A stretch of 63,528 nucleotides of DNA, filler included, from Folioceros fuciformis (lineage: Eukaryota), in NCBI GenBank assembly GCA_049999805.1. It is 8 parts of 8 records of this genome, joined end to end, with 100 filler letters (N's around TTAATTAATTAA, not from the genome) between each part and the next. Parts side by side here need not be neighbours in the genome. Positions count along the whole stretch, not along the records: positions 32,876 to 42,779 come from JBNGIO010003893.1; 7 more parts are not named here. One strand, 5' to 3'. Made by a program: the position numbers and the translations under genes. The notes beneath the pieces were generated by a model. That model did not search any database, was not told the DNA's origin, and was given only the letters and a program-made list of their open reading frames with translations. This document shows positions 4,812-54,443 of this stretch, one piece after another (position 1 is the stretch's first letter; the number at the start of each line of letters is the position of its first letter).

Positions 4812-4999
4812 GAGCTCAAGGGGGTATTTATACCCTCTAGAAGAGCTTCCTAGGAAGCTTCACAAGAAGCGCACAGGAAGCTGCGCAAGAAGCTTCTTAC
4901 AGATTAGCTTAAGCTAATCTAAACTAATGGTACTTAACTAGACACTAATCTTAGACTAAACACATTAGTCTAAGTACATTGGGCTTTATTAACCCTACA
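4812..4999 (-). repeat. Partial LTR (starts TGTAGGG) of the copia family at 32876-33637, inserted into the integrase of element B
   Basis: Reverse complement matches 33402-33637. It truncates ORF 4995-5804. Confidence 0.85.
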
Positions 5000-10354: not shown

Positions 10355-10612
10355 TTGCTTTGTACAGCTACCTTTCCCTCGTGTGTTCATTTTGCTTTGT
10401 GCAGCTACCTTTCTCTCATGTGTTCATTTTGCTTTGTGCAACTACCTTTCCCTCATGTGTTCATTTTGCTTTGTGCAACTACCTTTCCCTCATGTGTTCA
10501 TTTTGCTTTGTGCAGCTACCTTTCCCTCATGTGTTCATTTTGCTTTGTGCAGCTACCTTTCCCTCATGTGCTCATTTTGCTTTGTGCAGCTACCTTTCCC
10601 TCATGTGCTCAT
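10355..10612 (+). repeat. 37-bp minisatellite, ~7 copies (GCTTTGTGCAGCTACCTTTCCCTCATGTGTTCATTTT)
   Basis: Direct tandem copies visible. Confidence 0.95.
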
Positions 10613-10918
10613 TGAAGGAGAAACTCTTCAGAGAGAACCCCTCGCCCACGTTGAAGGAGAAACTAGAACCCCTCGCCCACNNNNNNNNNNAGAACCCCTC
10701 GCCCACGTTGAAGGAGAAACTAGAACCCCTCGCCCACGTTGAAGGAGAAACTAGAACCCCTCGCCCACGTTGAAGGAGAAACTAGAACCCCTCGCCCACG
10801 TTGAAGGAGAAACTCTTCAGAGAGAACCCCTCGCCCGGGTTGAAGGAGAAACTCTTCAGAGAGAACCCCTCGCCCAGGTTGAAGGAGAAACTCTTCAGAG
10901 AGAACCCCTCGCCCACGT
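10612..10918 (+). repeat. 31/39-bp minisatellite, ~9 copies (TTGAAGGAGAAACT[CTTCAGAG]AGAACCCCTCGCCCACG)
   Basis: Tandem copies in two length variants; includes a 10-N gap. Confidence 0.9.
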
Positions 10919-11189
10919 CACTCTCAAGGCCGCCTTCACTTTGGTTTTCCAGGATATTCTTGTTTTCCATGATATTCTTCCACAATCCCCCGGTTGCGAT
11001 GTAAACGGGCTCCTCCTCATGATCCTGGCCCTCGGGGACCTTAGCCTGATATTACACCGATTCGCCACTTCCCGATCCAGTCCCCTCAACCACTTTCGGT
11101 AACAATCTTCGCCCCTTACAAGGGAAACCTTCCCTCTCATCCCGGCCTTCTTAGGAATGCCTATCCGCTCATCCATACTCCTCACTGTT

Positions 11190-19340: not shown

Positions 19341-22300
19341 TAGCGTAGGATCGGTAGCACACGGCGTAGAGAGAAAGCTTAGAAAATCAGAATAGCCACT
19401 TGTGAATGTGGGTGTAAGGCCATAAGAGGCCGTGTCATGTGAACCGGTACGGCGGTTGACTGTTAACGTTACAACTGTGCACCTGTTCGTGCACTTATAT
19501 AATAAATATATATGTGTAACTATTCCCTTAACGACCTAAACTATGCATGACGCCGGGATACGGGCTAGTTAAGGGCAACCTATCTCGCTACCCCCACTTA
19601 GACTGTAATCCCGCCGTCGTGAACCTCACATACGCCGTAATCCGCGCCGTCTCTCAGCTTGCGCATACTCTCCGTCTGCAGATCAAGTTGTAGCTATGCT
19701 GAGTGTTGGCGGAATTTCGCACTTGGACGGCAGCTTTATCCTACTGCTCTTGCTTGGGCTGCTAGTCTGTGTCGCCACCTGGGAGCAGAAAAGATTTTCC
19801 GGGAGGAGTTCAAGGCTCCAGAAGGCTGGCAGACTTGAGCTTGGCAGGGAGGAAAGGCTGCGCCACAGGATGAGGACGTTGCATGCTCAGCTCCGGCAGC
19901 TCAAGGGATTGTCTCCTGCTTCTTGTCTTTAGGTATGCTTCGTTTTGGAGATGCCCTGAGGTGGCGGCGGAGATGGCAGGCGCCTGGTTGTTTTGTTTGC
20001 CTGTAGCACACAAAGGAAAGCAAGCATAGCTGCCCTGTTGTGCGCCCATCCACCCCCACTGATTGTGACAAGCGCTAACCTTGTGAGTGAGTGCGTGCAT
20101 GTGCAGTTGTGTGCAGGTCAAGGGTTTGTCTTGACTACAAGGCCCAAACCTTCACAGTGCGCGGTATGGCGCTCCTTAGGCAGTGGTTTTGTGAACAGGT
20201 CAGCAAGGTTCTGGTCTGTAGGTACGTAGACCAGGTCTATCTCACTTGAGTCCACGGTTTCTCTGATGTAGTGCTGCTTCACTGCAATATGTCTTGTTCT
20301 GGAGTGGTGAACTGGATTTTTGGATAGGGCGATGGCCGATTGATTGTCACAGTAGATGGTTGTGGCTCCAGGTTGTGGAAACCCTACAGAGGCCATAAAG
20401 TGCCTGTTGTAGACTGTTTCCTGAGCAGCTGAGGTTGCGGCTGTGTATTCAGCCTCAGTGCTGGAGAGGGCCACCACTGTCTGCTTCTTAGATGTCCAGC
20501 TGATTGCTCCTCCAAACAGAATGGTGCAGTTTGCAGTAATCGATTGCCTGGAGTCCTCGTCACTGGCCTAGTCGGAGTCAGAATAACAGATAAGTAGCGG
20601 GAACTTCCCTTGCGATTTGTATCTGATGCTGAGATATTGTGTGCCCTTGAGGTAACGCAGCACCCTCTTAACTCCTGTCCAGTGTGCATTGCCAGGATTT
20701 GCCAGGAACCGCGAGAAGATGCGAGTAGCAGGGGACACATCAGGTCTAGTCCATCCACTAATCCATATTAGACATCCAATTAACATGTTGTAAGGCTTCT
20801 TTTCCATCTCTTGCTTTTCAGCATCCGTCTTTGGACTTTGTTCTGTAGAGAATTTCTCTCCCACAGCCATGGGAGTGATGGCGGGCTTACAGTCTACCAT
20901 CATGAACCTCTCTAGCATTTGCCTTATATAATGAGCCTGGTGACAGAGTATACTTCCCTTATCTGGACTAATGAATATCTATACGCCTAGAAAGAAGGTG
21001 AGCGGACCCAAGTCCGTCATAGAGAATTCAGCAGTAAGAATAGACTTAACCTTCTTCATTATGTCAGGGGAGTTAGCAAATATCAATGCATCATCAACAT
21101 ATAGTGCTAGAATGGCAAATGTCTGCCCTTCTCTAAGGATGTACACATTTGTGTCTGCATCACTCTGACTGAATCCTGACTGGATCAGGTAGGCGTGTAT
21201 CTTCTTATACCATACTCTTGGTGCCTGTTTCAGGCCATACAGGCTCTTTTTTAACCTGCATACTTTATGAGGTTCTTTCTTACTAACATATCCTTCTGGC
21301 TGTGTGATATACATCTCTTCATCTATGGTGCCATGGAGGAAAGCGGTTTTGACATCCATCTGATGAATGTCAAGCTTACATTCTGCAGCGAGTGCAAAGA
21401 GCATCCTTATAGAAGACGTCCTTACAACAGGTGAGAAGGTTTCGTGAAAGTCAAGTCCTTCGACTTGCTTGTATCCATGCACAACGTATCTTGCCTTATA
21501 TCTGGCCACTGTTCCATCTAGGTTCAACTTTTTCTTGAACACCCACTTGCCTGTGAGTGCCTTGCGTCCTGGAGGCAGGTCTACCAGCTCCCAAGTCTAA
21601 TTGTCGATGAGGGACTGGTACTCTGAGTCCACGCCTGCGTTCCATGGAGCTTTGGCCTTCAGGGGAGGAAAGTGCTTCCTTTAGTGTGGCTGGCTCTCCA
21701 AGATCATGTGCTGCAAGCAGGGCCTGAGCAACATAGGCATGAGGTGAGGCATTCTTCTTTGATGTGTTGTCACTGGTAGTGAGATTAGAAGTTTGCTACC
21801 TGTAGGCCTCGTCCAGTTCGTAGCTTAATGGCTTGTTAGTCCACTGACTTGGATCAGTTGGATGTGTTCTAGACGATCTTCTAGGAGCTGGGGGCTCATA
21901 TGTTGGTGCCTCATCATGCTCCTCGACCTCTTCCTCAGCTACAGGAGGAGATGGTGGAGTGTCATCGTCCATGTCATCATAATCCTCCTGCTGCTCATTC
22001 TCGGAGTGTTGACTAGTGTCAGAGTGAGAGTCATCTGCAGTGAGGTTAGGTTCATCGTCTGGGAAAGCATCTGCTGATTGAACTGGAAAAACTGAAGCTA
22101 CTGGCACAGACTGAGAGGTAACAAGAGGCACATCATGTTCAGTTGACCACAGTTCAGTTGCATCTTGTTCAGAGGACGTAAGGCGTTGTAGACCAGGTAC
22201 GTCTCTGTCCTTTCCTGAAGCTTGCAGTAGAAACTGCTCGTCAAAGATGACGTTTCTTGCATGTAAGAACCGTTTCCGAGATGGATCATAGAGCTTGTAG

Positions 22301-22460
22301 CCCTTGATACCATCCGTGTAACCAATGAAGAGATGTTTGGTAGCCTTAAAGTCCATTTTACGTCGGATCTCATCGGGTGTATGTGCATACGCAGGGCAGC
22401 CCCATATCCGAAGATGGTCCACACGAGGCTTGACACCAGTCCATCGTTCAAAAGGAGTGG
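19341..22460 (-). mobile_element. Ty1/copia family A, copy 2 (disabled pol 20118-22460, PPT 19591-19599, LTR 19341-19590)
   Basis: Collinear with 452-3688. Pol fragments match copy 1 but carry stops and frameshifts. Confidence 0.95.
19696..20029 (+). pseudogene. Antisense accessory ORF of family A copy 2, frameshifted by an 86-nt deletion
   Basis: MLSVGGISHLDGSFILLLLLGLLVCVATWEQ..., then in another frame LVFRYASFWRCPEVAAEMAGAWLFCLPVAHKGKQA*. Confidence 0.7.
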
Positions 22461-22834
22461 TGTGGAGGCAAAACCCCGGGCACCGATTGCCAATGGGTTC
22501 CACCTTTAGTGGCCACACTTATCCCACTGTCGTTGAGACATTGGGTTTCGTTCCCACGAAGGAGCGATGGGGTTCCTTGCTGCTGTGGATGGAGGGTCGG
22601 ACTTGATCAACTCGATGATGGATTCGAGGGCTCCCCTCCAGCTCCGATCAGGCGTAGGACAGGCCTCGCTGTCCGGCGGTCAGCTGCACCTCTCTCGGTG
22701 CCCACAAACTCACTCCAGCCACTACAACGACCCTAACCTCTCAGATCTGCGACTTCCCTCACTCACTTCACTCACTCTTTCACTCCAGCACCAACACCAG
22801 CAACTACCAGCAACGACACCACTACCTTCTACAC
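22461..22834. mobile_element. Second copy of the TGTGGAGG-terminus element, inserted in the integrase of family A copy 2
   Basis: Matches 16944-17109. The junction falls inside the TPFERW-coding region. Confidence 0.8.
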
Positions 22835-23989
22835 NNNNNNNNNNNNNNNNNNNNNNNNNNNNNNNNNNNNNNNNNNNNTTAATTAATTAANNNNNNNNNN
22901 NNNNNNNNNNNNNNNNNNNNNNNNNNNNNNNNNNAATTCCAAGACTCAGTTAGCGGGGTCGAATTCTTCTTTCGTGCAAGCTTCTGAAGGTGGGTAGGCA
23001 CGCGCAGTGAGTGATGAGGAGATGGAGACTAAACTCCGTCACGTCTTTCACAGAAGACATACGTGCCGGTGATGGGAGCGTTGACCAGGACCCATTGCAC
23101 AGCGGGCACAGAGGCAGATGCTGCTGTCTCTAGACATCGACAACACAAATAGAGCCACGAGCGCAGTGGAATGCGGTCTGTGATTCGCCCTTCCTCAGAA
23201 GCTCTTGCCCAGTCCCAGGACGGTTCACTGCACGAACTGATGTTTCCTGACGCGCAGACAGCGCGTCGAGAGAGAAGATGCTGCACAGCGCGTCGAGAGA
23301 GAAGATGCCGCACCTCTCGGGGCGGGCACTCCGTGCGTGAAGGCGGAAACGGAGTGCAGCGCCTCGAGAGAGGGAGGCATTGAGTCTTCAGGCCGCGCCT
23401 GAGCACATGCATATGTGCGTGCACGCGGTGATCCATTGCCGGTATCTGGTCCATTGAGATCCAAATTTTTCAAGGGAATTTTTGGAAACCTGTGCCCATG
23501 CTGCCAATGGTAATCCTGGTGAAGACCAACAAAATGCTGATGTTGAGGAAGAACTCGTAATCGAAGCTCATATACTAGGATCTGAGGTGGTAATTCGACA
23601 ACTTGGTGCTGAAAACGGTAATGTTGATTAAAACCATGCTTGTCAATAGGTGATAAATTGCATTACCCATATGCATTTGGATAACCTGCTTGATGTTGCC
23701 GTACATAACCGGCAAGCATCTCCCATTCAATCCAGAAACAAGAGTCAAGATAATAGTGCATCAGAAATTCCAAATTTCTGATTGTTACCTAATCCTACAC
23801 CAGCAATGTTGTCTGGTCCTTTGGATATGACGACTTCTAGGTCGAGTGTTATAAATATTAATAATAATAGTATTTAGGCCTACCAGGGGCACGGTTCGTC
23901 TTAGGTCAGGATACCAACCAGCATAAGTGAAACGGTTACAACCACATAGCGTCTCGCTCGTGACACTTGATTCTGCACAAAGGTGCAAA

Positions 23990-27712: not shown

Positions 27713-27728
27713 TATTTGAATATTGGAC

Positions 27729-30700
27729 ATGCAGCCAGGTTCGCCCTCATCAGCGTCTGGCGAATTTAATGAAGGCAAAGATGTGGACCTTGGTAGATTG
27801 GAGTTGCAAGAGGAACCTACTTCACCTGTTGTCAATCCCACAACTGGTATTGATGAACAACAAGGCACATCTCCCTCTTTTGACTATTTGAGAAATTTTT
27901 GGGGCAATCCCACACAGCCTAGGCCAGGCTTAGGTAGTGTTCCTTCTCCTACAGCAGGCAACCCTGCTGGTTCCGCAAGCACCCTTGCAGGTACAGCAGG
28001 CAACCCTGCTGCTGGAGTTGGAGTTTCTACTGGTCAAGCTGCAAATTTTGCACAAGCTATGGCGATCACTCCAGGTTCCTTGAAGATTGAATTCAAGGAT
28101 AGGGATCGCTTTAATGGTAATGATTACCACATCTGGGCGATGAGGCTGACCCAGATTTTGGAGGAGCATGAGCTCATGTCCGTTGTGGACGGGACAGAAC
28201 CAAAACCAGCAACACATGCCAACAATGCAAATGCTGCTGATATTCTTGCATGGCAAAGGAAGGACAGGCGAGCCCGATCCATCCTTTTGGCATCCCTTGA
28301 CAGGAACATGATGCCGCACACTATGGATGCTGACACTTCAGCAGCAGTTTGGAACAACTTCAAACTCATCTATAGAGATAAGAGTTCTGTTTCCCTTGTT
28401 TTAGCGCATCGGGATTTTTTCAATATTCGCATGAAGGATAATGAGACTGTTGAGTCTTATATCAATAAATTTCGCACAGCTCGTGCGACTCTTGCATATT
28501 GCGGGACTACCTTCACTGAGTTTCAAGCTGCTGTTTCCTTTCTAGCATCCCTGCCTGATAGTTATTCTCAGTTTATCAGTTCTCAGAATGCAACTCTTCA
28601 AGCAGCTGGACCTGGCGCCAATGTGACGTTGGAGCAGATATTTGGAGCTTTGATTGCTGAAGAACGCCGTAGGAGCCTTCACAAGTCCAAGCCTACTATG
28701 CAACAAGGTAGCAGAGTTTTGTTTGCTTCTAGAGGACGCGGAGGCAATCGTGGCAGAGGACGTGGGGGCTCAGTACGAGGAGGAGTGTCAACCTCTCGAC
28801 AGCCCAACCTTCAACGGCATACTTTTACTTGCAATTGGTGCAAGATACCAGGTCATTTTGAGAAGGACTGTAGGAAGAAAAGGGCTGGTGAGCCCCGGAA
28901 GGAAAGTTCAAGTTCCTTTCCAGCTTCTAATGTAGCCACGTCCAAAGGTCTGCCCAAACCACCCGCCATCTTAGCAGTTTGCTTATCTTCTATCCAGATC
29001 CAGAATGACATGTGGTTCCTCGACTCTGGGGCAACTAGCCACATTTGTTTTGATAGGAATGCTTTCACTGCTTTTGATGCTAACCCAGCTCATCACCAGT
29101 TTGTTCTTTTGGGTGATGACAGTGGTTTATCCATTAAGGGTATAGGATCAGTAAAGATACAGCTTCNNNNNNNNNNNNNNNNNNNNNNNNNNNNNNNNNN
29201 NNNNNNNNNNNNNNNNNNNNNNNNNNNNNNNNNNNNNNNNNNNNNNNNNNNNNNNNNNNNNNNNNNGAGGAGCACTCTTGTAGAGTTTGTTTTGACAATA
29301 CAGGTTGTTCAGTTATTGGCAACAACATTGGAACTGACCTTTTCACAGGGACACCTTTCCATGATTTGTATCTTTTGAATGTGAGAACCTTGTATAGTCC
29401 ACATGCTACTGCTAACGTTACCCAAGCTTCTGGTCTCTCTCCTACTCAACTTTGGCATTGCCGATTAGGGCATGTGAATTTTAATAGGCTTTTCACTTTA
29501 GTCAATAACTCCGTTTTTAGAGATCCTTTGTCTTTCTCTTTTGATAATAGAGCCTTTTGTGACTCCTGTCAATTGAGCAAGGCAATTTCACAACCTTTCA
29601 AAGACCAAAACTTGTCAAGAGCACCTTGTCTTCTTCACACTGTCCATAGTGACATATGTGGCCCCATGTCGACCATGTCCTTTGGTGGAGCATCTTATTT
29701 CATCACTTTCATTGATGAATGGAGCCGCTATTCTACAGTTTTTGTTCTTGCCCATAAGAGTGAAGCCCTATCATGTTTTCAAACGTATTTAGCTTCTGCT
29801 CAGCGTCAGACAGGTCATCAGCTAAAGATTCTCAGGACTGACAATGGAGGCGAGTATACAAGTAATGCCTTCACCGAATTTTGTGCTGGAGAGGGAGTTC
29901 TTCATCAATTTACAGTTCCTTATACTCCAGCTCAGAATGCATTCGCCGAACGCAAGAACAGGACCCTTCAAGAGGCTACTCTTTCCAGCTTAGCATTTGC
30001 AGGCCTCACTAGGGGATATTGGGCTGAAGCCCTTATGGCAGCTAATTATGTGCAGAACAGGTTGCCTACGAAGGAGCTTGGTTTGGTTACCCCTTATGAG
30101 CGCTGGACTGGGAAGAAGCCTAGGATCACCCATCTACGCATTTTTGGAGCACCAGCATATGCCTTGATCCCTTCTGCACTTCGGAGTAAGCTTGATCCTA
30201 AAGCTGTTCGCCGCATTTTCATTGGCTATTCGGACGAGGTAAAAGGATATAAGCTTTTTGATCCAAGTACTCGGCAAGTTTCCATTTCTCGGAGTGTTGT
30301 TTTTCATGAGAATGCTCTTCTCCGACGTCATGATGCTGCTTTGGATCCTACTTCTTTTGATGCTACTGTTTCTATTAATGGCGTGGATGATTTGGCTGAT
30401 TACAATACTGATGCTGATGTTGATGTTTCTATTTTTGATATTGATGATGTTTCGGATTCACCTTCCTCGGCTTCAGGGGGGGCTACAACATCTAGTTCAC
30501 ATGCACAAGCTCATCTTCCTAGTACTTTTCCAGCACCTGTTTCTTCTCAAATAGATGAGTCTTTTGCAGTTCCCTCCTTTCATGAACCCGTGGAAGCTGA
30601 TCCTGTTGTTGTTCTTGATACTGATCCTGAGCCCACACCTGATCCAGTTGAGCCTACACCTGAATCAGTTTTGCGTAGATCTACCCGCCATAGACCACCT

Positions 30701-32356
30701 CGTAGTGAATGGTCTGAACCACCTTTTGTAGCTGGTCTCGTTTCAGATCAGAATTTTGATACTTTTGAACCCGCTACTTATCAAGAAGCAATTACAAGCC
30801 CTGAGGCTGAGCAATGGAAAAAGGCCATTAAGTCAGAATACGATTCTCTCATAGCAAACCAAACTTGGAAGTTAGTGGATTTGCCTAAAGGTCGTAAGCC
30901 AATTGCTTGTAAATGGGTATTTAAGAAAAAGCTTAATACTGATGGCAGCATAGGTCGCTATAAAGCAAGGCTAGTTGCGAAAGGATACAGCCAGGTAGCA
31001 GGACTTGATTACAATGAGACTTTTTCTCCAGTTGTAAAGTCTACTTCAATAAGGATTTTGCTGGCTTTATCTGCTCATTATGGCCTCTTAGTTCATCAGC
31101 TAGATGTTAAAACAGCTTTTCTTAATGGTTCTTTGCAAGAAGAAATTTATATGTGCCAGCCCGAAGGCTTTGAAGTTGATGTGGACAAAGTTTGCTTGTT
31201 GCTGAAGACATTGTATGGCCTCAAGCAGTCTAGCAGAGCATGGAATGAAACCTTTCATGTTTTATTAGTAGAGTTGGGTTTCACTTGTTTGGATGCAGAT
31301 AATAGTGTATTTATTATGTGGGAAGGAGACAACTTTCTTATCCTAACCGTTTATGTTGATGATAATTTCTTGTTTTGTACATCAGCACAATTAATGGCTA
31401 GGATTAAGGGTGTTCTTCTTTCCCGCTTTGAGATGACTGATTTGGGCCAGCTTACTTTCTCGCTTGGTGTGCAATTCCATTTTTCAGAAGACAGGCACAC
31501 CATAGAGATTCATCAGGAGCATTTTGTTCGCCAGCTTTTGCAGCGGTTTAACATGGCTGATGCTCGCCCCGTTTCTACCCCTATTTCAACAGGTGAAAAA
31601 CTCTCTAAGGAGCAATGCCCATCATCACAAGCAGAGAAGGATTTGATGGCAACACGTCCTTATAGACAAGCAGTGGGTAGTTTGCTTTATCTTGCTGCTT
31701 GGACACGCTTGGATATTTCTAGGGCTGTTAATAGTGTATCCCAATTCTTAGAGAACCCAGGGGAAGCCCATTGGACGGCAGTTAAAAGGATTTTTAGGTA
31801 CCTCAAGGGAACTTCTAGTTTAGGACTTACCTATACTAAGCAGCCTAATGGTTTGGTGCTCACTTCATACTGCGATGCCGACTGGGCTGGCGATCCAGAT
31901 GGTAGAAGAAGTGTAGCAGCATACTGCAATCTACTAGGTGGGTCAGCCATCTCATGGTCTAGTAAGAAGCTGTCTACCATTTGCCTTTCATCTACTGAAG
32001 CAGAGTATGGAGCTTTGTCTCAAGCTGCTAGAGAGGTAATATGGATACGCTCTTTTTTGAGAGGAATTCAACAGTTACCAGCAGGGGCTACAACTATGTG
32101 GTGCGATAATCAATCAGCAATTGCACTTTCTAAGAATCCGGTATTTCATGCGAGGTCAAAGCATATTGAAATAACGCATCATTTTATTAGACAAGCTGCT
32201 GATACAGGCGAGGTTGAGGTTCACTATATTCCAACAGGTGACAATATAGCGGATCTTTTGACCAAGCCACTCCCAAAAGTTTCTCATGGCAAGCACTCCG
32301 CAGCAGCAGGTCTCAAGTCCATTACTGTAGTGACCAAAGTTGGTACTGCACACTAA
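27729..32356 (+). CDS. Copia element E gag-pol polyprotein, apparently intact
   Basis: DRFNGNDYHIW, CNWCKIPGHFEKDC knuckle, WFLDSGATSH, WHCRLGH, RTDNGGEY, YVDD, ADLLTK. The only frame change lies across or just after the 100-N gap (29167-29266). Confidence 0.92.
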
Positions 32357-39034: not shown

Positions 39035-39106
39035 GCTTCCGTAGCATAGTGGTAGTGCGTTCGCTTCGTAAGCGAAAGGTCGCGAGTTCGATCCTCGCCG
39101 GGAGCT
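39035..39106 (+). tRNA. tRNA-Thr, anticodon CGT
   Basis: Full cloverleaf: GCTTCCG/CGGGAGC acceptor, TTCGC/GCGAA stem with CGT at 39067-39069, TTCGATC T-loop. T-run terminator just downstream. Confidence 0.97.
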
Positions 39107-39678
39107 TTCGTTTTGTCCTTCCTCTCAGTGGCTCAGGACGAGACCGTACAACTTGTCCTCCGTCGATGACCAGGTTGTCTGGTAGCTGGTCGGTGGAACT
39201 CAGCGTGGGGCCATCAGAAGGAGTCAAGGAAAGGCGAAGGACGGAGGCACAGGCCATTTGCTTGCGACGCGGCGATCCGGCCACTGGTGTGGCTCGGGGG
39301 AGATCCAACCTGCGCCTTGCTGGTCGCGTGTCACTGGACCATGACATGGGACAAGTGGGGTATTTGTGTGTGGACGGACGGTTGATAGCGCGCAGTTCCC
39401 GGACATTTCGAGATTCGATTTCCTCAGAATAGAAGAAGGTGGCCCACTGTTCAGGCAAAGGCCTGTGGATGTCAGTGGAAGAAGTGGTGTGCGAGCAGAG
39501 GAATTGAATGGAATTGACAGGACAGGTGGATTTTGGTCCTGGCGGGATGCTGACTGAGAGGAGAGCACGTGGGTTATGATTCTTATGAGGAGGGAAGGTG
39601 TGGGCTTTGACGACGAGGGAGTTTTGGTTCCTGGGCTCGGAATCTCGGACCCGCGCGTGGCTGGCCAGCGTGGCAGGC

Positions 39679-42168
39679 ATGGCCAGCATGTCACTGCCCC
39701 TGGCATGTCGGAAAGGGCTGGCGATGGGAGCAGGGATGGAGGTCACGTCCATGTGCAGGGCCAGGACGTTGGGATTAGAGTGTAGGGCTGCTGCGTGTGG
39801 GTTGCGGGTGACCTGGAGGGGGCGGCCTGGGAGCGGGTCACGCGGGCATGGGGGCTGGAAAGGGAGTTGTGGCAGGGCTTTGGGTTGCGGTGTGCAGGCC
39901 AAGGAGGGGGAGGCTCGTGTGCGATGGAGCGGAGGGAAGAGGATTCTGGTGGGTGGTTCGGGTTCTGGTGCATGAGTATGTGCATTGTGGGTGATCGGAT
40001 ATTGAGATGGGGATTATGTGCAGATCAGCACTGGCGATGTCATGGGGGATATACATGGGGCAGCTCTGGTGACGGAAGTCCTGGAGCAGGGTCGAGAGGC
40101 AGGAGAGAACGTGGAGGTGTACGCTCTTGGAGGCCAGCGCATGAAGGCTGCTGGAGCTGTGCTCATTGGTGCGTGATGTGTGTGATGCGAACCAGACTAG
40201 CGTACCTTTCATTTCATGGCCTTAGCAGATGAGCTGATACTGTGACCTTGTGATGTGCAGGAGACAACACAGGGCTCAGCTCGATCGGCCTTGTCGAAGC
40301 CCTGCCACTGGTTGTGCCTACTCTTCGCTTGCAAGTGGCTGTCCGGGCATTTTTGGAGAGTCATCCGCCGGATGTTGTGGTGGGTTTGTCAGCAGGTGTG
40401 CTTTTGGTCTGCTCTGTGTTCATGCTGCAGTTTCAGGCCATGCATTTGCTTACGCCGGTCCATGGCATCAATCAGGTGTTGATCGACTACCCCGGCGTGA
40501 ACATACCGTTCGGAAAGTATGTGAAGAGCAAATTTGGTAATCCTAACTTTGTAGTCTCTTTGAGGAAGACGTGTGGAGTACTGCTGGTTTTGTGAAGTGG
40601 TGGGAACAGAGCATGGCTCCTTGCTGTGTCGTTTTACGCCTCACAGCTTGTCAGGTGATCTACTACATCCCCCCAAATGAATGGCTGTGGAATACTTCAC
40701 GGACTGCAGATATCGTTCACATGAGTGATATGATCTTGGCAGTTTACAAAGGAGAGGTAAGTTCTGCAAAAGATCCTTTCACATTGTCGATACCTCAGCC
40801 CCCAAACTCCAAGGTCACACGATGTGATCCGTCATGTGGTGTGGGTAGTCGGGAAGTCATGTCATCACACTGGCTTAAGCAGGCAGAGTATTATGCCAAG
40901 GAAGGTGGTTGCGTCATCGAAGTCGGTCACCCTCTGGTTGATCTCAAATCGATGCAGCTGTCAAGAGATGAGGCAGGTCCCTCAAATTTCTAGGCTTGAT
41001 CCTCCAGGATTTCTCAGAGAATGTCAGCGCTGGGTCATTTCAGCTTCGCCGCCAAGTACTTTCTGGTGAGTTGCCTGTCTGCCAACAGTTCACACCTGTC
41101 CTACGTTGTGTGGACAGGCTCGTAACAAGCTTGGAATACCGGCCGGGGACATCGTAGTAGCTTTGATACCAGCTTCTCGTACACAGGAGCTGAGGCATGT
41201 GTGGCCTGTGATTGCTGATGCCGCTTCTCAGTTACTGGGTTCCTTCCGCTCTTCGGGTAGTGCAAGGTGATGGTCCTGCTTTTTCTTCGTCGGTTTAGGT
41301 TTTCTGTCTGGCATTGTAAAGCACCTCCCGGCCAGGCGGATGGATGACTCGTGCTGATCATTGCCTTGTTGGCACTGCAGTCTCTCTAAAGCCAATGTAA
41401 GGTTTGTTATCCCAGTTGCACTCCCAAATCAACGTCATCGGCTGGAGGAAGTTCTGGACGCAAGTGGATTGAAGGACTGCGCTCAGCTTTGGCATGTAAG
41501 CTTACGCCAACAAAACTTTAATAAACCAAGAACCTGTAACGGTTCTCCGTTCTTACGACTGAAGCTCCATTTCTCCAATGTTGAAGTGAAGAGGAGCTTT
41601 GTGTGCAGGAAGACTCGCACGTAGTGCTCGCAGCATCAGATTTGGCCATCACGAAGTCCGGAAGCATAAATGTGGAACTGGCCCTTTACAACGTAAGCGA
41701 AGCTGTTCTTTTCGTAGCTTGCCGTCCCGTACGCCGGGTGTGACAAGAGTGACTGACCTCACACGGTGCAACGTCAGGTCCCGCAGGTCGTGGTGTACAA
41801 GATCGACACCGTCACGGCATGGATTGCCAGGAACGTTTTTAGGTTTTCAGTCGAGCACGTCTCGTTGGTCAACCTCATCCTCGGATCCAAGGTACGTGAA
41901 ACTGTCGATGGAGGCATGAGATAACAGCCAGCTTGATCCCTCAAGCTACAACACATCATCGCAGGCTGTCCCGGAGTTCATTCAAGAGGAAGCTGTGGCG
42001 AGCCAGGTTGCTGCCGCAGCAGCTGAGTTGCTCCCGACGCAGGAATCAGGGGTACGGGATCAGGTACTGGTGAACTACGAGAAGCTACGGCTGTTGCTCG
42101 GCGATGGAGGTGCCACAGCCAGAGCTGCCAGAAGCGTGTTCCGAGCGACACAACGTCTCGGTACCTGA
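39679..42168 (+). CDS. lpxB: Lipid-A-disaccharide synthase (GT19), 11 exons, ~486 aa, with transit-peptide-like N-terminus
   Basis: Manual exons 39679-39948, 40024-40168, 40261-40379, 40476-40536, 40647-40756, 40883-40972, 41118-41266, 41381-41495, 41609-41692, 41778-41891, 41965-42168 join in frame (1461 nt). Motifs ISTGDVMGD, LIDYPGVN, YYIPPNEWLW, VGHPLVD, LIPASRTQEL, DLAITKSGS, VPEFIQ. Confidence 0.92.
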
Positions 42169-43129
42169 GAGCATCTCGCTCGGATCACTCCACTGATTTC
42201 AGTCCACCATCTTCTGCCATAGACCTTCAGCTTGCAGAGCTTTCTTGACGGAAGACCGTCTAACGGTTTCACTGACGGACTTTCAGATGGGAATCAGGAT
42301 CCGGTATAGACGGAACTCCTTTCAATCCACTGAGGACGGATATCCGTGGGCCTTCACTGTGCCAACTACGCAGACTCTGGCAGACAAAGGACGGCAACGT
42401 CTCGGGTCTTTGGGCCTTTGGCGATTCTAAGATGAATGATTCGTCTTGAGATTCAACAAAGGATCTTGTGAGTTCAGAAAAGTGACAAGGATCCATGACA
42501 GTATTCCATACATGTCCTATTGAATTGTAGGTTTACAGGAACCCTAAAATGGATAGTTAATAAATTCCTGGTTTAGGTTTAGGGTTAGGGTTAGGCTTTT
42601 GTTAGGTAGATTTTTGTTATTCCACATTGACATTTTGGATGATTTTAAGAGTTGGCATTGGTAGAGACTAGTCCCTGGAGTGTCCTTCTAGATCCCCTTG
42701 GCTTGGCTTTCCAAAGCTTCTTCCTTTCGATTCCGATTCTCTCATCATTTTACAGTAAGGGCTTCCTTCCTTCGCCCATNNNNNNNNNNNNNNNNNNNNN
42801 NNNNNNNNNNNNNNNNNNNNNNNTTAATTAATTAANNNNNNNNNNNNNNNNNNNNNNNNNNNNNNNNNNNNNNNNNNNNATAATATACAATGAATATTTG
42901 GTAACTTTATACATGATGGCCTTACGTGCTATTACTCTCTTTTTGTGATTTTGTTTCCCTCTTCATTTGGGTAGATGGATGTTTTTAATCTTATTTTTTA
43001 ATAAACTCTTTTTATTTTTCAGATGATGTTTTACATCACAAGTACATCTAAGCATTACATCGAGGGCCAATAGCCTAAACATACAATTGTAGGGTTGCTA
43101 TTGTCGATACAAGGTTCCATCTAGCACGT

Positions 43130-48290: not shown

Positions 48291-49467
48291 ACCACGCACG
48301 TTTTTGACCCACACCAGGCAGTTCGTGTGTGAAGACGGAGCAATGACTGCCCATGAGCCACCGACACGGTAATAAAAGACAAAGTATTTACGTAGAATTG
48401 AGCAGCTTGAGGTCCATGGACTTCCTGCCTCACCTAGGCCTTGAAGAAGTTCATAAGAGACTGTCCCTTTGAGTGGTTCCTTTGATCATACCTGCGGTAT
48501 GTCAGGAAACCAAGTACCCTGCAACAATGTCTTCTATGCCCACCAGTACAAACCAACTGGCCTGAGAACTTGAGACAGCATATCAACGGTCTTTCTATCA
48601 TTTTAAATGCATTCGTAGTCAGGCTCCGAGCAAGGCATGCAGCCGCATCTGGGCTGCGAGCAATTCATTCCTGCCACTAGAGCATCAATCTCTGTGTTTC
48701 TGCAGAGCATCAGAGTCCATGAGCTGCAGGGCCAAGGTACTTGTTTGTTCGAACACAGGAAACTCGGCTTAACTTAACCGACACACAACCAGAAGCACGT
48801 GCCACTGGTTTCTCTAGAACGTCATTTTAAAAGTGAATGACTTGCGATTCCGTAGAAGGAGACTAATTTTAGTGGGACTGTGGAGAAAATGTTTCTGTAT
48901 GTTAGGTAGGTCCAACACCTCTGAAAAGTCTTGCGAGTGGATGGCTTTGTCCCTGTGTAGCATAGAAAGGGTCAATGACGAGGCTTCACTGGAAAACATT
49001 GGGGATACTATCGGTCTCCACCACGAAGCAAAAGGCCACCAACTCGTGCAACTAGCAGTATAATTATATATTTTAAAACTATTAATTATCAATCATGACA
49101 TATTTTAACCCTACCACCTGTGGAGGCTCCAGTTCCTCTTGTACACTGCGTTGGAAAAAAGGCGGTAGAGAAAGGTCTTGAACGATGGGCAAAAGCGCTT
49201 GAGATTGGTGTGGAAGAGAGAGACTCTTGGTACATATCTCACAACAATAGTGGGTTATCGAGTCCGTGGATGTAACACGCTCGTATCGGCAAGAACTCAT
49301 TTTCTTCGAAATGGCTTGCCGGCCCTTTCCGTGCCGACGCTTGTTGAGCAAGTCACGACTAGAGTGTTCCTTCTACGGAATACTTGGTAAGTGTCGCGGC
49401 AAGTCCTCCTGAATGGGTGTTGAACATTAGTCTGCTACGGTCACCAGTTGTTGAGAAGCGGATAGCC

Positions 49468-50286
49468 ATGGCAAATAAAGCTAGTCAGCAGAAAGAGCGG
49501 CAATTGCGATCATCCCTATGGGAGAAGCAGGACGTGGAGGACTTGTGGCATAGCCGAGACGTCCCACGGATTGCTGCTGCCTCCACTTCGGACCTAGCCT
49601 GTGCCTTGTCCGATGAGCAGCAGAGTAGTTGCAAGAGCGGATGCAAGACTGCTGGAACTTTGAGGTGTGCGTGTTCGTCCGCTCTCGGTGACAGTAGACA
49701 CGGAATTGCCGCTGGCTTTTGCTCTGCAGTAGCGCCAAAGGAAACCGCTATGCTACGCAGAGGTGGAGCATCGAAGGAGGCCGAGATTCGAAGACTGTTT
49801 GATCTAATTGATGCAGACGGCGATGAAAGGATATCCAAAACTGAACTTGTTGGCTATCTAGAGAAACTTAGCCTGTCGTTGGCCTCGGATCGCGCCGACG
49901 CCGTGTTGAATTCTGCGGACGAGAATGGAGATGGCATGTTGGAGTATGGCGAGTTTGTGAAGCTCTATTCTTCGTTGTGTCCGCCCGGTGGGGAATCCGA
50001 CGTGGAGGAGAGGGATCAGGGGCTGCGAGAGGCCTTCACACTGTTTGACAGCAATAAAGATGGATACATATCGCCGAGCGAGTTGCGATCTATTGTGGAG
50101 AATCTCAACTTAAGAAAAGGAAGACCTGCTCGTGATTTCACTGCGATGATCAAAGCAGTGGATAGAGATGGTGACGGGCTTGTGAACTTTGAAGACTTTA
50201 AGGCAATGATGCTTGATGTCTCCAGCTCGCGGAGGCCGTGTACTTTTGCAGAATGTTTTAGAACAGCAACACGTTGGAATCTCTAA
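49468..50286 (+). CDS. Calmodulin-like protein with four EF-hands, intronless (start could instead be ATG 49750)
   Basis: Loops DADGDERISKTE, DENGDGMLEYGE, DSNKDGYISPSE, DRDGDGLVNFED. Confidence 0.9.
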   Translation: MANKASQQKERQLRSSLWEKQDVEDLWHSRDVPRIAAASTSDLACALSDEQQSSCKSGCKTAGTLRCACSSALGDSRHGIAAGFCSAVAPKETAMLRRGGASKEAEIRRLFDLIDADGDERISKTELVGYLEKLSLSLASDRADAVLNSADENGDGMLEYGEFVKLYSSLCPPGGESDVEERDQGLREAFTLFDSNKDGYISPSELRSIVENLNLRKGRPARDFTAMIKAVDRDGDGLVNFEDFKAMMLDVSSSRRPCTFAECFRTATRWNL

Positions 50287-52469
50287 GGGTTGCAAAACGG
50301 TGGTGAGGCCCTCACCATGAGGGCATCGAGATACCCGTATCCTCTTGACTGTTCTACTTCAGCAGGCACCAAATCGTGGCTTCTACTTCGAAGAATCCCG
50401 ACTGTTCTCTTACTTTATGTGCATTTGAGGCATCGGAAACGCCTTTCAGGTTCTTCAAGTTCCGTTTGCAGAATCGCACAATTGGCATGCAATAAGGTGA
50501 GAGTAAAGAAGCGAACACATTAAACACAGTACTTCTTAGCTTTACTCTTTCCGTTATTATAAAACGGTATACCGAAACATTAGAGCAGCCTTGTTGCATT
50601 GCGTGTCATCCTGTACAGAAAAGGCACCCCTAGCCTAGCGAAGGCAGTTTACAACTGGGCTACGAATGCAGGGGCTAAGAATGCAGGTTTGCTGCCATCA
50701 CCAGCTCCGGTTCTAGATAGGCCTCTCGTTTGAGGTCTAAGGAATCTCCTACCTCTTTTAAATAAAATATACTAAGTTTAGATAGCTTTGCTTGTTAGAG
50801 ATTTGTTCCATAAATCTATCATATTATGATCCATCTAAGAGAACAAGAAAGTGAGACAAAACAAAGTCCATGTATACTTAGATCAAGGGACGGCTGAATA
50901 GGAGGACACTTTTCTCCTTCAGAAAGGATGGCAAAAAGGCAACAAGAGCATCCAAGAATGGCAAGAAAGCACCCATTGCATTTGAAGAACGGTACAAAGC
51001 ACCAATTGTGTCTTCTTTCCAATGTTTGTCTATCTGCATCATCAAGTACATTCCCATGATCATGGACATCATTCAATTGTACATAGACATCATGATATGC
51101 CCCATCATCAACTATGCATGTTCCATTAATACCACCCACCCAAGTTCTAGCGTGTTCATATCTTTCAACATCAGCTTGTGCTGACTTGCCCTTGCCGTTG
51201 TGGTGTACACTGATTTGGCACATCCTCTTTATATGTAAAACGTTACAATGCAAAAGAGGAAGCTCAATCTTGCTCCTGTAGTTATGGAACTCTCTAGAAT
51301 AGGCCTTTAGAAATCGAGAAAAACCCTTGTCCATGGCTTCATGGGTCTTGATGACCCATGTAGTTAAGACCCTTTTAACACACTCTTGTAATGCCCACTT
51401 AGTGCCTATATGTATTGGATGGCAGTAGCATGTCCTTCTTTCCATTTACGATATGGATGAAAGTAAGTTGAAGATAATTATCTTGACTTATCTTCAATTC
51501 GGTCTAATTTTCTTGTTCATTATTATTTGGTCTATTTATCCCAAAGGACCGCTGAGTGAAAAAATAATAATTGCACGGATGCCATGCCTGGGATACCTGT
51601 AAAGTTTGTATAAATCCCATTTTCCGTGTAAAAGCAGTCACCTAATTCTGAGAGGTGCATTGGGACAATATTCGATTCACAGGGGTCTTGACGCTGCCAC
51701 GTGACATCGACTTGACGCACCTCCTGGCCGAAAGTGAATATTGCGCTCACGCGCCGATTCCGCCGTTTTCGCCAGTGGGATTGTGTCCCTGCCGAACAGG
51801 CCCGTCAACCGAGATCCTCTCCTGTCGTTTCTCCGATTTCTGCGACTTGGCTCAAACCAGTGAAATCCACAGTCGATCAGCTACTTCCATTGCCTTCCTC
51901 GACTGTTTCCTGAGATCTTGGGAGGGATTCTGTCCAATTCTTCCTGGCTGGACTGGAATTGCCAGGCTCGCAGTTTGATCGGTCCAGCTGTAGCGTGTGA
52001 CGCATTCCACGCGGATGGAGTACCAGCTCCTGTCTGGTGTTGCGATGTTGGCGTTATGTGCGAGCTGGAGATTCTCCTGGAATTCTTCAAACTTCCAAAG
52101 GTGATGCTCTTCCCAAATTCGTTTGGGCACAGGATAGTTTCTACTTCCAAGCAGTTGATTGTACTCCTGGGAGATATGAACTTCAAGGATCTGCTTCGAT
52201 CCTTGACTATATGCTCTCCATGCGTTCTCCTGGTTCCCGATCCGTGTAATTCTTCAAATTGGTGGCAGTATTAATCTGTCCTGTTGAAGGGTGTCGATCT
52301 TGGACGCGGAGTTGTAGAATTGCCAAGTGCAGGCCCGGCTCCTTCTAGGGCTCACAGGGTCATCTGTGGCGATGCGCACTACTGTTCTGGGTAGTAGATC
52401 GGGTTGATTTGTTGAGGACAATCTGGTAGTGTTGATGATTGATTTGAATGGAGTAGGAGAGTCACACCG

Positions 52470-54443
52470 ATGGTCATTCCGAAAGAAATGGTTATGGAGT
52501 TTCCGAGTGTCTCGCAAATCCTGGGACAAGCAGGTTTTTCAGCTACGGAACACCAGCAGGAAACCGTGAAGATGGCCAAGGCAGAGCTGCTTTCTATTGC
52601 CGAGGAGCAAGAAAGAGCTTGGCTTTCCATGAGATACGCTTTGGAGGAGCTGGAGAGGAGGTTGCTGGTGGTGGAGACTCAAAAGCTTTTCTTTGGTGAC
52701 AGTCTGCATGCAAAAGTGGTGAACAATGCATTTGGTTCTTCTGAGCACACAACTAAAACCATGTATGTTCAAAGCATGGATTCCCTTCTGCGGTATAGTT
52801 CTTTTTACCAATCAAAGATTTTTGAAGACAGGAGTGCAGGGAATGAGGTTGGCAACTTTCCGATGAGGAAGTTAGAAAGACAGCTGACATTCGTTTCTGA
52901 AATGCCTGAAGAGCAGGTGGAGCAGAACTGGCAAAGGGAAGCTCAGATGCTCAGGGCCGAAGTGGCCAGATTGGAGGGGGAACTTAGATTAGCAACACAA
53001 GAGCAGGTGACGACTGACATTCTTGATGATGCCCCCGAAGAATTATCTGATGCAGCAAGCTGCTCGCACGCCCTCTGTTCTCAAGGAGCGGGCGTGCCAG
53101 AAATCCTTTCTTTGACATCTAGTAGTGGGGAATTGGATTTTGTTAGTGTCATCGTTGGTCAGCTGGTGTCTACCTTTCAAATGCAGCCAGGTAGTCCCCA
53201 AAAGCCCCAAGTTTACTTCGGGGAGGATGAGGAAAGGAAGCTCGGAGTCTTTGGCGTTGTTATCCGACTCTTCATGGAACTGACCCATCAGCTGGCTGTA
53301 CTCAGCAAAACTGTCCAAGGGGACTTGAGCGAAGAAATTGCTGCTATCCCACCATGGGTTGGGATCCTGCAAACAGCTGTGGCTGAATTGCAAGACTATC
53401 ATGACAGTGGGAGGCCGTTGCTACGGGTACAGTCGGGCATGACTGCTGATCAACACATTCTGAACCTGCAACAGGAGCTGCAGACTGCAAGGAATGACCT
53501 TGAGAGAGCCCTTCAACAGCATACCGAGGAGATGCAGCGAAAGGAGAACACACTGAAGTTTGCTCAGGAGCTGAACTCCCAAGTAGCAGTGGAGTTCACA
53601 AAGGTAGAAACAGAGTTGGCAGATTTAAGGTCTCAGTACAAAGGCCTACTAGCTTCCGTGGAGATACAGCTGAAGGAAGCCAAACTGGCTTCTGCGAAGG
53701 GTATGCAGCAGAATCTTGCAAAGAATGAGCTGAAAATTGCAGGCTTAGAGCGCATGGTGGCAGACAAGGACTCTCAACTGCAGGAGCTGAGGAGAAGGAT
53801 GCATGCTATTCAGAGTGAAACGGACGCAACTGTGATGGAAAAGTTTGACCTGCTGCAAAAGCTTCGGGAAGTGGTAAAACAGACAGAGGGGCACAAGGTA
53901 CGGATAAAGGAGCTAGTCACCATTAACCAAGAAGCTCTGCAGTTTGCACAAACCAAAGAGGAGGAGGCAGCTGGCCTGCATCGCCAGCTCCGAAGTCATG
54001 ACCAGTCGTTGCAAGAGAAAACGGATCTCTGCTCCAAGCTGACACACGAACTGAGTGAGGCCAGAAGGCTGCTGGACGCGGCAGCTCAAGAGAAGGAAAT
54101 GGACAAATTCCAACAAAGCAGTCTAAAGGAGCAAGTTGCGGAGATGGAGTACGAGCTCAGGCAACGAGAGGATGCCTTGGAAAGGCTGAGTAAGCATCTG
54201 GCTGCCGTGGTCAAGGACCAGGATCAGGACCACGACCAGGATGTAATTCAGGAGAATTCCCTCAGATACCAATACGCAATTCTCTCAAACTCCCAGCACA
54301 AGGAGAATAAGGTGCGAAGCCCAGATCAGTTGAGGCACTCAAAGGTTATTATACGTCACTTGGAAGAAAAATTAGGATCTATGGACAGCGAGTTCCGGAA
54401 TCACATGGCTGAGATGAAGCACATGGTACCCTCGCCCAACTGA
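52470..54443 (+). CDS. Uncharacterised long coiled-coil protein, 657 aa
   Basis: Uninterrupted 2-kb ORF with E/Q/K/L-rich heptads. No family recognised. Confidence 0.8.
   Translation: MVIPKEMVMEFPSVSQILGQAGFSATEHQQETVKMAKAELLSIAEEQERAWLSMRYALEELERRLLVVETQKLFFGDSLHAKVVNNAFGSSEHTTKTMYVQSMDSLLRYSSFYQSKIFEDRSAGNEVGNFPMRKLERQLTFVSEMPEEQVEQNWQREAQMLRAEVARLEGELRLATQEQVTTDILDDAPEELSDAASCSHALCSQGAGVPEILSLTSSSGELDFVSVIVGQLVSTFQMQPGSPQKPQVYFGEDEERKLGVFGVVIRLFMELTHQLAVLSKTVQGDLSEEIAAIPPWVGILQTAVAELQDYHDSGRPLLRVQSGMTADQHILNLQQELQTARNDLERALQQHTEEMQRKENTLKFAQELNSQVAVEFTKVETELADLRSQYKGLLASVEIQLKEAKLASAKGMQQNLAKNELKIAGLERMVADKDSQLQELRRRMHAIQSETDATVMEKFDLLQKLREVVKQTEGHKVRIKELVTINQEALQFAQTKEEEAAGLHRQLRSHDQSLQEKTDLCSKLTHELSEARRLLDAAAQEKEMDKFQQSSLKEQVAEMEYELRQREDALERLSKHLAAVVKDQDQDHDQDVIQENSLRYQYAILSNSQHKENKVRSPDQLRHSKVIIRHLEEKLGSMDSEFRNHMAEMKHMVPSPN

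Follow-up and report, generated by a model that had tools for sequence, protein, structure and literature searches.

The 63,528-nucleotide stretch of Folioceros fuciformis DNA analysed here (assembly GCA_049999805.1; hereafter the window, whose positions are used throughout) includes, at 39679..42168 on the + strand, a gene for the lipid A pathway enzyme LpxB. This locus is likely to be an expressed nuclear land-plant gene encoding a cyanobacterial-type LpxB behind an 88-amino-acid leader of the organelle-import type, and its product is likely to belong to one anciently acquired, vertically inherited clade with LpxB catalysis. Judged by comparison of the proteins, the gene is not peculiar to the Folioceros genome, being one member of a clade from prasinophytes, streptophyte algae, bryophytes and gymnosperms.

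An earlier note on this DNA, made from the sequence alone, had described 11 exons that splice into an intact LpxB of about 486 amino acids. Conceptual translation of the spliced chain, a coding sequence of 1461 nucleotides, gave exactly 486 amino acids with a lone stop codon, the terminal one, and all of the motifs quoted in that note are present in the product. Three of the eight listed public sequencing runs contain the stretch, namely X1, X2 and X3, with 0.98, 0.82 and 0.62 of the sampled words respectively. X1 and X2 are DNA runs, X3 is labelled 'RNA?' by guess, and their contigs were compared with the window over 39300-42600. The features of the gene, with the evidence for each, are as follows.

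39646..39678, + strand: 5' untranslated region (UTR), minimum extent, from the start of the X3 contig (record 10) that carries exons 1-3 spliced; the limit 39646 is a contig end and differs from a mapped transcription start
39679, + strand: start codon ATG (translation)
39679..39948, + strand: exon 1, with the ATG, the 88-amino-acid N-terminal leader and the first core residues (…KRIL); no Pfam family matched this leader exon in the exon-wise profile scan
40024..40168, + strand: exon 2 (ISTGDVMGD…), nucleotide-sugar/acceptor motif region, containing D95 and M97; PF02684 positions 3-43 (19.7 bits) and TIGR00215 positions 12-51
40261..40379, + strand: exon 3 (DNTGLSSIGLVEALP…HPPDVVV); flanking introns 2 and 3 spanned by X3 contigs
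40476..40536, + strand: exon 4 (LIDYPGVN…), containing D182 (translation, X3 junctions)
40647..40756, + strand: exon 5 (…YYIPPNEWLWN…), containing W211 and W213; PF02684 positions 110-142 (22.4 bits)
40883..40972, + strand: exon 6 (X3 joint 40756>40883)
40973..41117, + strand: intron 6, 145 nucleotides, the sole GC..AG intron (X3 joint skipping 145 nucleotides)
41118..41266, + strand: exon 7 (…LIPASRTQEL…), with the pyrophosphate-binding motif P283-A284-S285-R286; PF02684 positions 176-217
41381..41495, + strand: exon 8 (translation, X3 junctions)
41609..41692, + strand: exon 9 (…DLAITKSGSINVELALYN), containing S372 and E376; PF02684 positions 254-279
41778..41891, + strand: exon 10 (VPQVVVYKIDTVTAWIARN…); PF02684 positions 281-315 (28.8 bits against a gathering score of 22.6)
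41965..42168, + strand: exon 11, including the TGA (translation, X3 junction)
42166-42168, + strand: stop codon TGA (translation)
42169..42600, + strand: 3' UTR, minimum extent; X3 record 14 spans 41963-42600 and continues past 42600

All ten introns are spanned by X3 contigs at exactly the predicted sites, and none of these exon-exon joints was found in the DNA runs X1 and X2, so that the exon chain passed a comparison with transcript data that had been set beforehand. Given the X3 joints at all ten introns, the exon chain is real and the gene is transcribed and spliced, and the absence of the joined form from X1 and X2 argues against a processed copy. X3 also contains some unspliced pieces. 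Nine of the introns are GT..AG and the remaining one, intron 6, is GC..AG; its joint in X3 has a placement slack of 4 letters and is in frame only as 40972>41118. A different model for this intron (model A, with a GT donor at 40977, an acceptor at 41089 and a product of 497 amino acids) leaves the frame intact and was rejected, as the X3 contigs show only the 145-nucleotide GC..AG skip. A minor acceptor of intron 5 at 40849 was also seen (X3 joint 40756>40849); it adds 34 nucleotides, shifts the frame and brings a stop at codon 245, and the resulting isoform is probably unproductive. In the 3' UTR region, at about 42571-42597, there is a short degenerate telomere-like run of TTTAGG, TTTAGGG and TTAGGG units; a pattern search for a pair of perfect TTTAGGG units, up to 1 mismatch being allowed, gave 0 matches.

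The assignment to the LpxB family (GT19 in CAZy) was made by profile scans carried out exon by exon rather than on the whole spliced protein. Five of the 11 exon pieces match PF02684 (LpxB) in colinear order, at the segments of the 374-position profile given above, and only exon 10 passes the gathering score by itself; the equivalog model for lpxB, TIGR00215, matches five of nine exon pieces. Residues 70-478 of the spliced protein align with a Marchantia lipid-A-disaccharide synthase at 58% identity over 409 amino acids, and it is this alignment, together with the five colinear exon matches, that makes a chance match to LpxB untenable. The Marchantia orthologue covers positions 5-381 of the 382 in TIGR00215. 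All six eukaryotic orthologues scored, a set of relatives and not the window protein itself, exceed the cut-off of that model (239-272 bits versus 190.25), and the same six reach 20-27 bits or nothing on the LpxB-related model TIGR03492, for which the cut-off is 219.2. As judged by these scores, the clade is true LpxB rather than the LpxB-related family of the TIGR03492 type. The Marchantia orthologue also matches E. coli LpxB (5W8S/5W8N) by sequence with an expectation value (E) of 1.2e-33, residues 92-450 lying on 6-351. When exon 7 was used as a query among longer proteins, none of 70 candidates was significant, so the window's own protein is apparently missing from that collection.

Active-site columns were taken from the residue list for E. 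coli LpxB in Table 3 of Bohl et al. (PMC5785501), a structure paper that describes the enzyme as an inverting GT-B glycosyltransferase. Window residue D182 aligns with the predicted catalytic base D98, P283-A284-S285-R286 with P198-G199-S200-R201, S372 and E376 with T277 and E281, and W211 and W213 with the hydrophobic-groove residues W126 and W128. D98, S200 and R201 are kept in 21 of 21 eukaryotic rows, and E281 in all 20 rows that have a residue there. The G199 to A and T277 to S replacements are conservative changes. E. coli LpxB (b0182; 5W8S, 5W8N, 5W8X) thus shares its family with the window protein, in which D98, S200, R201, E281, W126 and W128 are all kept, and the two would be the same GT-B enzyme. 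They differ in that identity is 27%, that E. coli has PGSR where the window protein has PASR, that E15 and S17 are replaced in the window protein, and that the E. coli enzyme has neither leader nor introns. The predicted substrates are uridine diphosphate (UDP)-2,3-diacylglucosamine and lipid X. The enzyme would bind the former through P283-A-S-R286 and E376, D182 would act as the base in joining this donor to the 6-hydroxyl of lipid X, and the product would be a beta-1',6 tetra-acyl disaccharide-1-phosphate.

The same motif separates two types of LpxB. Alanine stands at the place of E. coli G199, giving PASR, in 21 of 21 eukaryotic rows and in 30 of the 31 Cyanophyceae-type rows of the tree described below. 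PGSR is found in E. coli and in 13 of 14 divergent Cyanobacteriota rows, and the 14th has AGSR, so that glycine holds the second place in 14/14. The distinction drawn in the earlier note between a cyanobacterial-type PASR and the PGSR of E. coli is therefore upheld by these rows, and the change from G to A reads as a derived signature common to the eukaryotic and Cyanophyceae-type LpxB.

Relatives of the gene were sought in two protein collections. Exon 10, searched against 1.84 billion representative proteins at E <= 0.001, gave 21 proteins. Five of them have organism names, all of non-angiosperm green plants or algae (Marchantia polymorpha, Sphagnum fallax, Cymbomonas tetramitiformis, Spirogloea muscicola and Mesostigma viride), and these full-length matches align to the spliced protein at identities up to the 58% over 409 amino acids given above. 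A search with the Marchantia orthologue covered 5.8 billion proteins; of the 8000 candidates scored, 2258 were hits at E <= 1e-5. Among the best 120 of these 2258, 17 rows bear green-plant or green-alga names, 27 bear cyanobacterial names and 76 are without organism name; no row is named as an angiosperm or as a non-cyanobacterial bacterium. The green names are Marchantia, Riccia, Sphagnum (two loci), Ceratodon, Physcomitrium, Taxus, Cryptomeria, Klebsormidium, Spirogloea, Cymbomonas and Mesostigma, plus a 'Gb_' record taken as Ginkgo, and one of the rows without a name clusters with Pyramimonas parkeae. In Sphagnum fallax, two nearby loci (P0035/P0004, BDL97_01G025600; P0042/P0045, BDL97_01G025200) lie on one chromosome-scale contig and are near-identical in the tree, an indication of recent duplication.

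Identities follow the same order. Identity of the spliced protein is 55-60% with full-length orthologues of bryophytes and gymnosperms and 51% with the Ceratodon record, and with no liverwort, moss or gymnosperm LpxB in the collections does it exceed about 60%. To most Cyanophyceae LpxB the protein is 42-45% identical (about 40% for the lowest row seen), to divergent LpxB of the same GTDB phylum 25-36%, and to E. coli LpxB 27%. In a genome scan, 77 of the 80 best loci name a cyanobacterium and the other three an 'uncultured bacterium'.

The cyanobacterial relative is the only PF02684 gene in five of the five cyanobacterial genomes checked, and 147 of the 151 genomes sampled from the phylum contain PF02684. 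In Tolypothrix tenuis PCC 7101 (L009), the operon Omp85/BamA-lpxC-fabZ-lpxA-lpxB ends with lpxB, whose score on TIGR00215 is 362 bits. Given its operon position and this score, and because it is the sole PF02684 gene in the five genomes, the cyanobacterial relative is a true lpxB. The make-up of the operon further indicates that genes for lipid A and for outer-membrane protein assembly are linked in the donor lineage. The operon (L009 669-7155) begins with Omp85/BamA, for which the best NCBIfam match is the chloroplast family IAP75/Toc75 (TIGR00992, 592 bits, below the cut-off). In many of the 151 Cyanobacteriota genomes a weak second match to PF02684 is present (for example, 26-33 bits across profile positions of about 154-288, in frames of 434-463 amino acids), and it may represent the LpxB-related family TIGR03492.

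For the phylogeny, a maximum-likelihood (ML) tree of 67 rows and 406 columns was built with IQ-TREE under LG+C20+F+G4 with posterior mean site frequencies (PMSF); supports are given as ultrafast bootstrap/SH-aLRT (the approximate likelihood-ratio test of the Shimodaira-Hasegawa type). The rows are the window protein, 20 eukaryotic proteins, 25 of the 80 named cyanobacterial loci spread over orders, E. coli, and, from the phylum sample, 6 of the 30 best-scoring and 14 of the 20 divergent loci, these 14 being placed only to the GTDB phylum of the Gloeomargaritaceae genome. Left out were 55 named loci, 24 phylum-sample loci, the six divergent loci L122, L124, L126, L128, L130 and L132, and all cyanobacterial proteins with P identifiers. 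Fifteen rows have an odd composition, and E. coli, P0015 and L120 have long branches. The eukaryotic proteins form one group (100/96), the 31 Cyanophyceae-type rows form another (99/92), and the two unite at 100/98 apart from the divergent Cyanobacteriota LpxB and E. coli; a quick tree agrees with this careful one. The 13 land-plant rows, the window protein included, group at 92/98, and the union of the window protein with the liverworts has a support of only 48/0. Inside the eukaryotic clade, Mesostigma and the prasinophytes branch first, followed by Klebsormidium, Spirogloea and the land plants; since this order follows the green-plant species tree, vertical descent fits.

The tree and the ranking of the best 120 relatives of the Marchantia orthologue thus bear out the derivation from cyanobacteria that had been proposed, and a cyanobacterial origin of the window LpxB is supported as far as sequence comparison reaches. 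The most likely history begins with a single ancient transfer into the nucleus of an early green alga, the donor being either the plastid ancestor or a different cyanobacterium, after which the gene would have been inherited vertically by the prasinophytes, streptophyte algae, liverworts, mosses and gymnosperms. The clade was not seen in any angiosperm, neither among those best 120 relatives nor among the 21 exon 10 matches.

Cyanobacterial LpxB of the Tolypothrix type resembles the window protein over the whole core (42-45% identity), with PASR and the active-site residues D, S, R and E; Cyanophyceae LpxB is the nearest prokaryotic clade to the eukaryotic one, and the Tolypothrix protein is likewise a TIGR00215 equivalog. 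Unlike the cyanobacterial gene, the plant gene is nuclear, has ten introns and an 88-amino-acid leader, lacks lpx neighbours, and encodes D and M for the E and S at E. coli positions 15 and 17. The Marchantia 'lipid-A-disaccharide synthase' (BFI39916.1/MARPO_0062s0088) falls in the same clade, with a leader, a core and the changes seen at D95 and M97 of the window protein, which itself forms a land-plant branch separate from the Marchantia-type orthologues, its placement resting at the 48/0 given above. The Marchantia record and the orthologues in Riccia, Sphagnum, Ceratodon, Physcomitrium, Taxus, Cryptomeria, Klebsormidium, Spirogloea, Mesostigma, Cymbomonas and Pyramimonas bear automatic annotations only. 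No description of a cyanobacterial-type LpxB clade of green plants was found in the literature, the coverage of which leaves out most subscription journals and supplements; as far as searched, the clade is thus present in public annotations yet apparently undescribed.

Several points weigh against the proposed reading of the gene as an expressed, plastid-ancestor-derived LpxB. The RNA status of run X3 rests on a guess. In the tree, the eukaryotes are sister to all 31 sampled Cyanophyceae-type rows rather than nested among them, as a plastid-derived gene ideally would be; constraining them with Gloeomargaritaceae, a group picked after the tree was seen, costs 10.96 log-likelihood units, and the approximately unbiased test does not reject that arrangement (p-AU 0.263). 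E. coli is the sole row of the tree from outside the phylum Cyanobacteriota, and the tree is without an angiosperm (Arabidopsis-type) LpxB, which makes the separation from that clade indirect. The patterns of the genome scan were derived from an alignment of plant and cyanobacterial proteins and are hence biased to that type. The leader of the window protein, being Ser/Thr-poor (11%) and Arg/Gly-rich, gives no argument for the plastid. A search for long relatives of the Tolypothrix LpxC (1361 hits among 3105 candidates) returned, among its best 120, 16 named rows, all cyanobacterial and none eukaryotic, and 10 further LpxC-relative rows that were looked up have cyanobacterial names only; this negative is weak because the best 120 reach down to 139 bits, just where non-cyanobacterial rows begin, and a plant LpxC of other origin would rank lower. 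Finally, in the N-terminal motif G-E-x-S-G-D, E. coli E15 and S17 align with D95 and M97 of the window protein, which departs from the motif at both places; position 15 is D in 17 of the 17 eukaryotic rows with a residue there and position 17 is M in 18 of 20, so that the reaction may differ.

The leader had been described in the earlier note as a Gly/Arg/Ala/Cys-rich extension of about 85 amino acids, and its length and composition were found much as stated: 88 amino acids precede ILISTGD, with G at 20%, R+K at 18%, A at 12%, C at 7%, S+T at 11% and D+E at 5%. Leaders of 55-141 amino acids are present in the other orthologues whose sequence begins at Met and extends into the core, versus 2-3 amino acids in four cyanobacteria. 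As every orthologue with a complete N-terminus carries one, the leader is a feature of the whole clade; S+T rises to 23% in the full-length leaders of other orthologues. The protein would be one that is imported into an organelle, with removal of the leader; the plastid is the favoured compartment, and a separate mitochondrial-type LpxB may coexist with it.

A wider proposal, put forward tentatively, is that non-angiosperm green plants have retained part of the outer-membrane programme of cyanobacteria: a plastid-imported LpxB would make a diglucosamine lipid of the lipid A type in the chloroplast envelope, beside the plastid peptidoglycan wall kept in these lineages, and both would have been lost toward the flowering plants, in which only the Lpx set derived from mitochondria was left. 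The occurrence of the clade in mosses, liverworts, conifers and green algae, with no flowering plant found, is a hint that production of a bacterial-type envelope lipid may persist in some plant organelles. According to PMC12681378 and PMC9434261, full sets of plastid peptidoglycan genes are known from glaucophytes, bryophytes, Selaginella and some gymnosperms but from no angiosperm. Like the LpxB clade, the plastid peptidoglycan (Mur/PBP) pathway is a bacterial-type envelope pathway with nuclear genes and a similar phyletic pattern; it is a different pathway, and lipid A and Lpx have 0 occurrences in PMC12681378 and PMC9434261. The link between the two patterns would be one by analogy. Opiyo et al. 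2010 (PMC3087551) give lpxA, C, D and B as the only lpx genes of cyanobacteria and hold that all or some of those in plants must stem from other bacteria; they also cite histochemical evidence that chloroplasts contain lipid A.

It is also possible, if again doubtful, that an LpxB of cyanobacterial origin works in mitochondria or in both organelles, in a pathway like that of Arabidopsis, as the sole LpxB or beside another, with no plastid pathway at all. The absence of a leader-bearing cyanobacterial-type LpxC among the named eukaryotes in the best 120 of 1361 hits would agree with this, as would the Arg/Gly/Ala-rich leader of the window protein with its S+T of only 11% and acidic residues of 5%. 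On the other hand, the products of genes that came from the plastid ancestor are mostly sent back to the plastid, and the leaders of the other orthologues are richer in Ser/Thr. The literature likewise falls on both sides: eukaryotic lpxA, lpxD, lpxB and kdtA are given as mitochondrion-derived and mitochondrial in Table 2 of Wang and Wu 2014 (PMC4198247), whereas the phyletic pattern of the clade is like that of the full plastid peptidoglycan gene set, known from no angiosperm according to PMC12681378.

With the LpxB function proposed here, the N-terminal motif is the feature least easily reconciled. The residue change is confined to the eukaryotic clade, within which S17 is retained only in Cymbomonas and Mesostigma; among the Cyanobacteriota rows with a residue at the site, position 15 is E in 45 of 45 and position 17 is S in 43 of 44, and E. 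coli has E and S. S17 is important for the activity of E. coli LpxB according to PMC5785501. Because E15 and S17 are replaced across the eukaryotic clade, a changed reaction has to be considered, in which the LpxB fold and UDP-sugar binding are kept and another acceptor or donor is used, the product being some glycolipid of the organelle that differs from the lipid A disaccharide. The fixation of both changes in this acceptor-side motif and the failure of the LpxC search (best 120 of 1361) to reveal a bacterial-type partner enzyme of the same origin speak for such a new function. It is nevertheless unlikely, since all six orthologues lie above the cut-off of the equivalog-level lpxB model, conservation extends to the predicted base, to the contacts with pyrophosphate and ribose and to both Trp of the lipid groove, and Ser at position 17 is still found in Cymbomonas and Mesostigma.

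An orthologue of the Arabidopsis-type, mitochondrion-derived LpxB, with the cyanobacterial likeness an artefact of sampling, would be a very improbable explanation of the window gene. The Arabidopsis enzyme, AtLpxB, is like the window protein in being encoded by a nuclear plant gene with an organelle leader. The gene, At2g04560, and a mitochondrial location of its product by green fluorescent protein (GFP) were reportedly described by Li et al. in PNAS in 2011. Besides this shared feature, the tree without an angiosperm sequence would leave room for such an explanation, and the nearest ESM Atlas cluster by features consists of 152 mostly streptophyte LpxB, a match made with no alignment and with no distinction between the plant types. 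Against it, gymnosperms score 446-457 bits versus the Marchantia protein and no angiosperm reaches the 309 bits of the 120th hit, a score that about 100 cyanobacterial or nameless proteins of bacterial length do reach (best 120 of 2258); the comparison with AtLpxB is an indirect one, through these rankings. The five named proteins among the 21 exon 10 matches, all from non-angiosperm green plants or algae, point the same way, and the eukaryotic lpxB studied in PMC4198247 is given there, in Table 2, as mitochondrion-derived.

Bacterial contamination or a very recent transfer, in favour of which stands only the bacterial family of the protein, is refuted, as the earlier note had argued from the introns, by the ten spliceosomal introns removed in the transcript contigs, the eukaryotic leader exon, a gene tree that follows the green-plant species tree, and the plant pentatricopeptide repeat (PPR) gene, copia elements and transfer RNA (tRNA) that are its neighbours in the window.

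These neighbours and the other features of the window are the following.

39035-39106, + strand: tRNA-Thr with anticodon CGT (CGU); Rfam tRNA, 67.6 bits; about 570 nucleotides upstream of the lpxB start codon
44764-47766, + strand: PPR gene of the PLS class, 1000 amino acids, without introns and encoding an E motif (PF20431)
27720-32356, + strand: copia-type long terminal repeat (LTR) retroelement, with gag at 27720-29378 and pol at 29138-32356 (integrase, SH3-like domain, RVT_2) in overlapping frames
4995-7165, - strand: copia-type LTR retroelement, fragmentary
about 20118-23662, - strand: copia-type LTR retroelement, fragmentary
49363-50286, + strand: open reading frame with several EF-hand calcium-binding domains
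52443-54443, + strand: open frame of 666 amino acids; no Pfam family at E <= 0.001

PLS-class PPR proteins with an E motif are of the organelle RNA-editing type typical of land plants. Taken together with the tree, the plant-like neighbours in the window mark the host as a land plant. The frame of 666 amino acids may be part of a spliced gene or of an unclassified element. The block 10001-14000 has a G+C content of 0.55-0.66 versus about 0.45 elsewhere, a strong negative GC skew and overlapping frames on both strands; the one frame tested in it, 11045-11752, had no Pfam match. The window also contains 22 runs of N, either as pairs of 44 N set 12 bases apart (for example 3736-3779/3792-3835 and 9657-9700/9713-9756) or as blocks of 100 or 10 N. 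These runs resemble masking or scaffolding gaps, and the lpxB gene is free of them.

The lipid A genes of plants have so far been discussed as one set, reported to be mitochondrial in Arabidopsis and given in PMC4198247 as mitochondrion-derived. The clade to which the window gene belongs would add a distinct LpxB lineage of cyanobacterial descent that bryophytes and gymnosperms have inherited vertically from early green algae, with none seen in angiosperms. The conserved D and M at a site reported to be important in E. coli pose a specific question of structure and function. Should the enzyme prove to be mitochondrial, it would be a clear case of an organelle pathway built from genes of both endosymbionts. 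If it is plastidial, the question of whether chloroplasts keep a lipid-A-like envelope lipid becomes testable, and if the plastid lipid A reading is true, the histochemical reports of lipid A in chloroplasts would gain a genetic handle in Marchantia and Physcomitrium.

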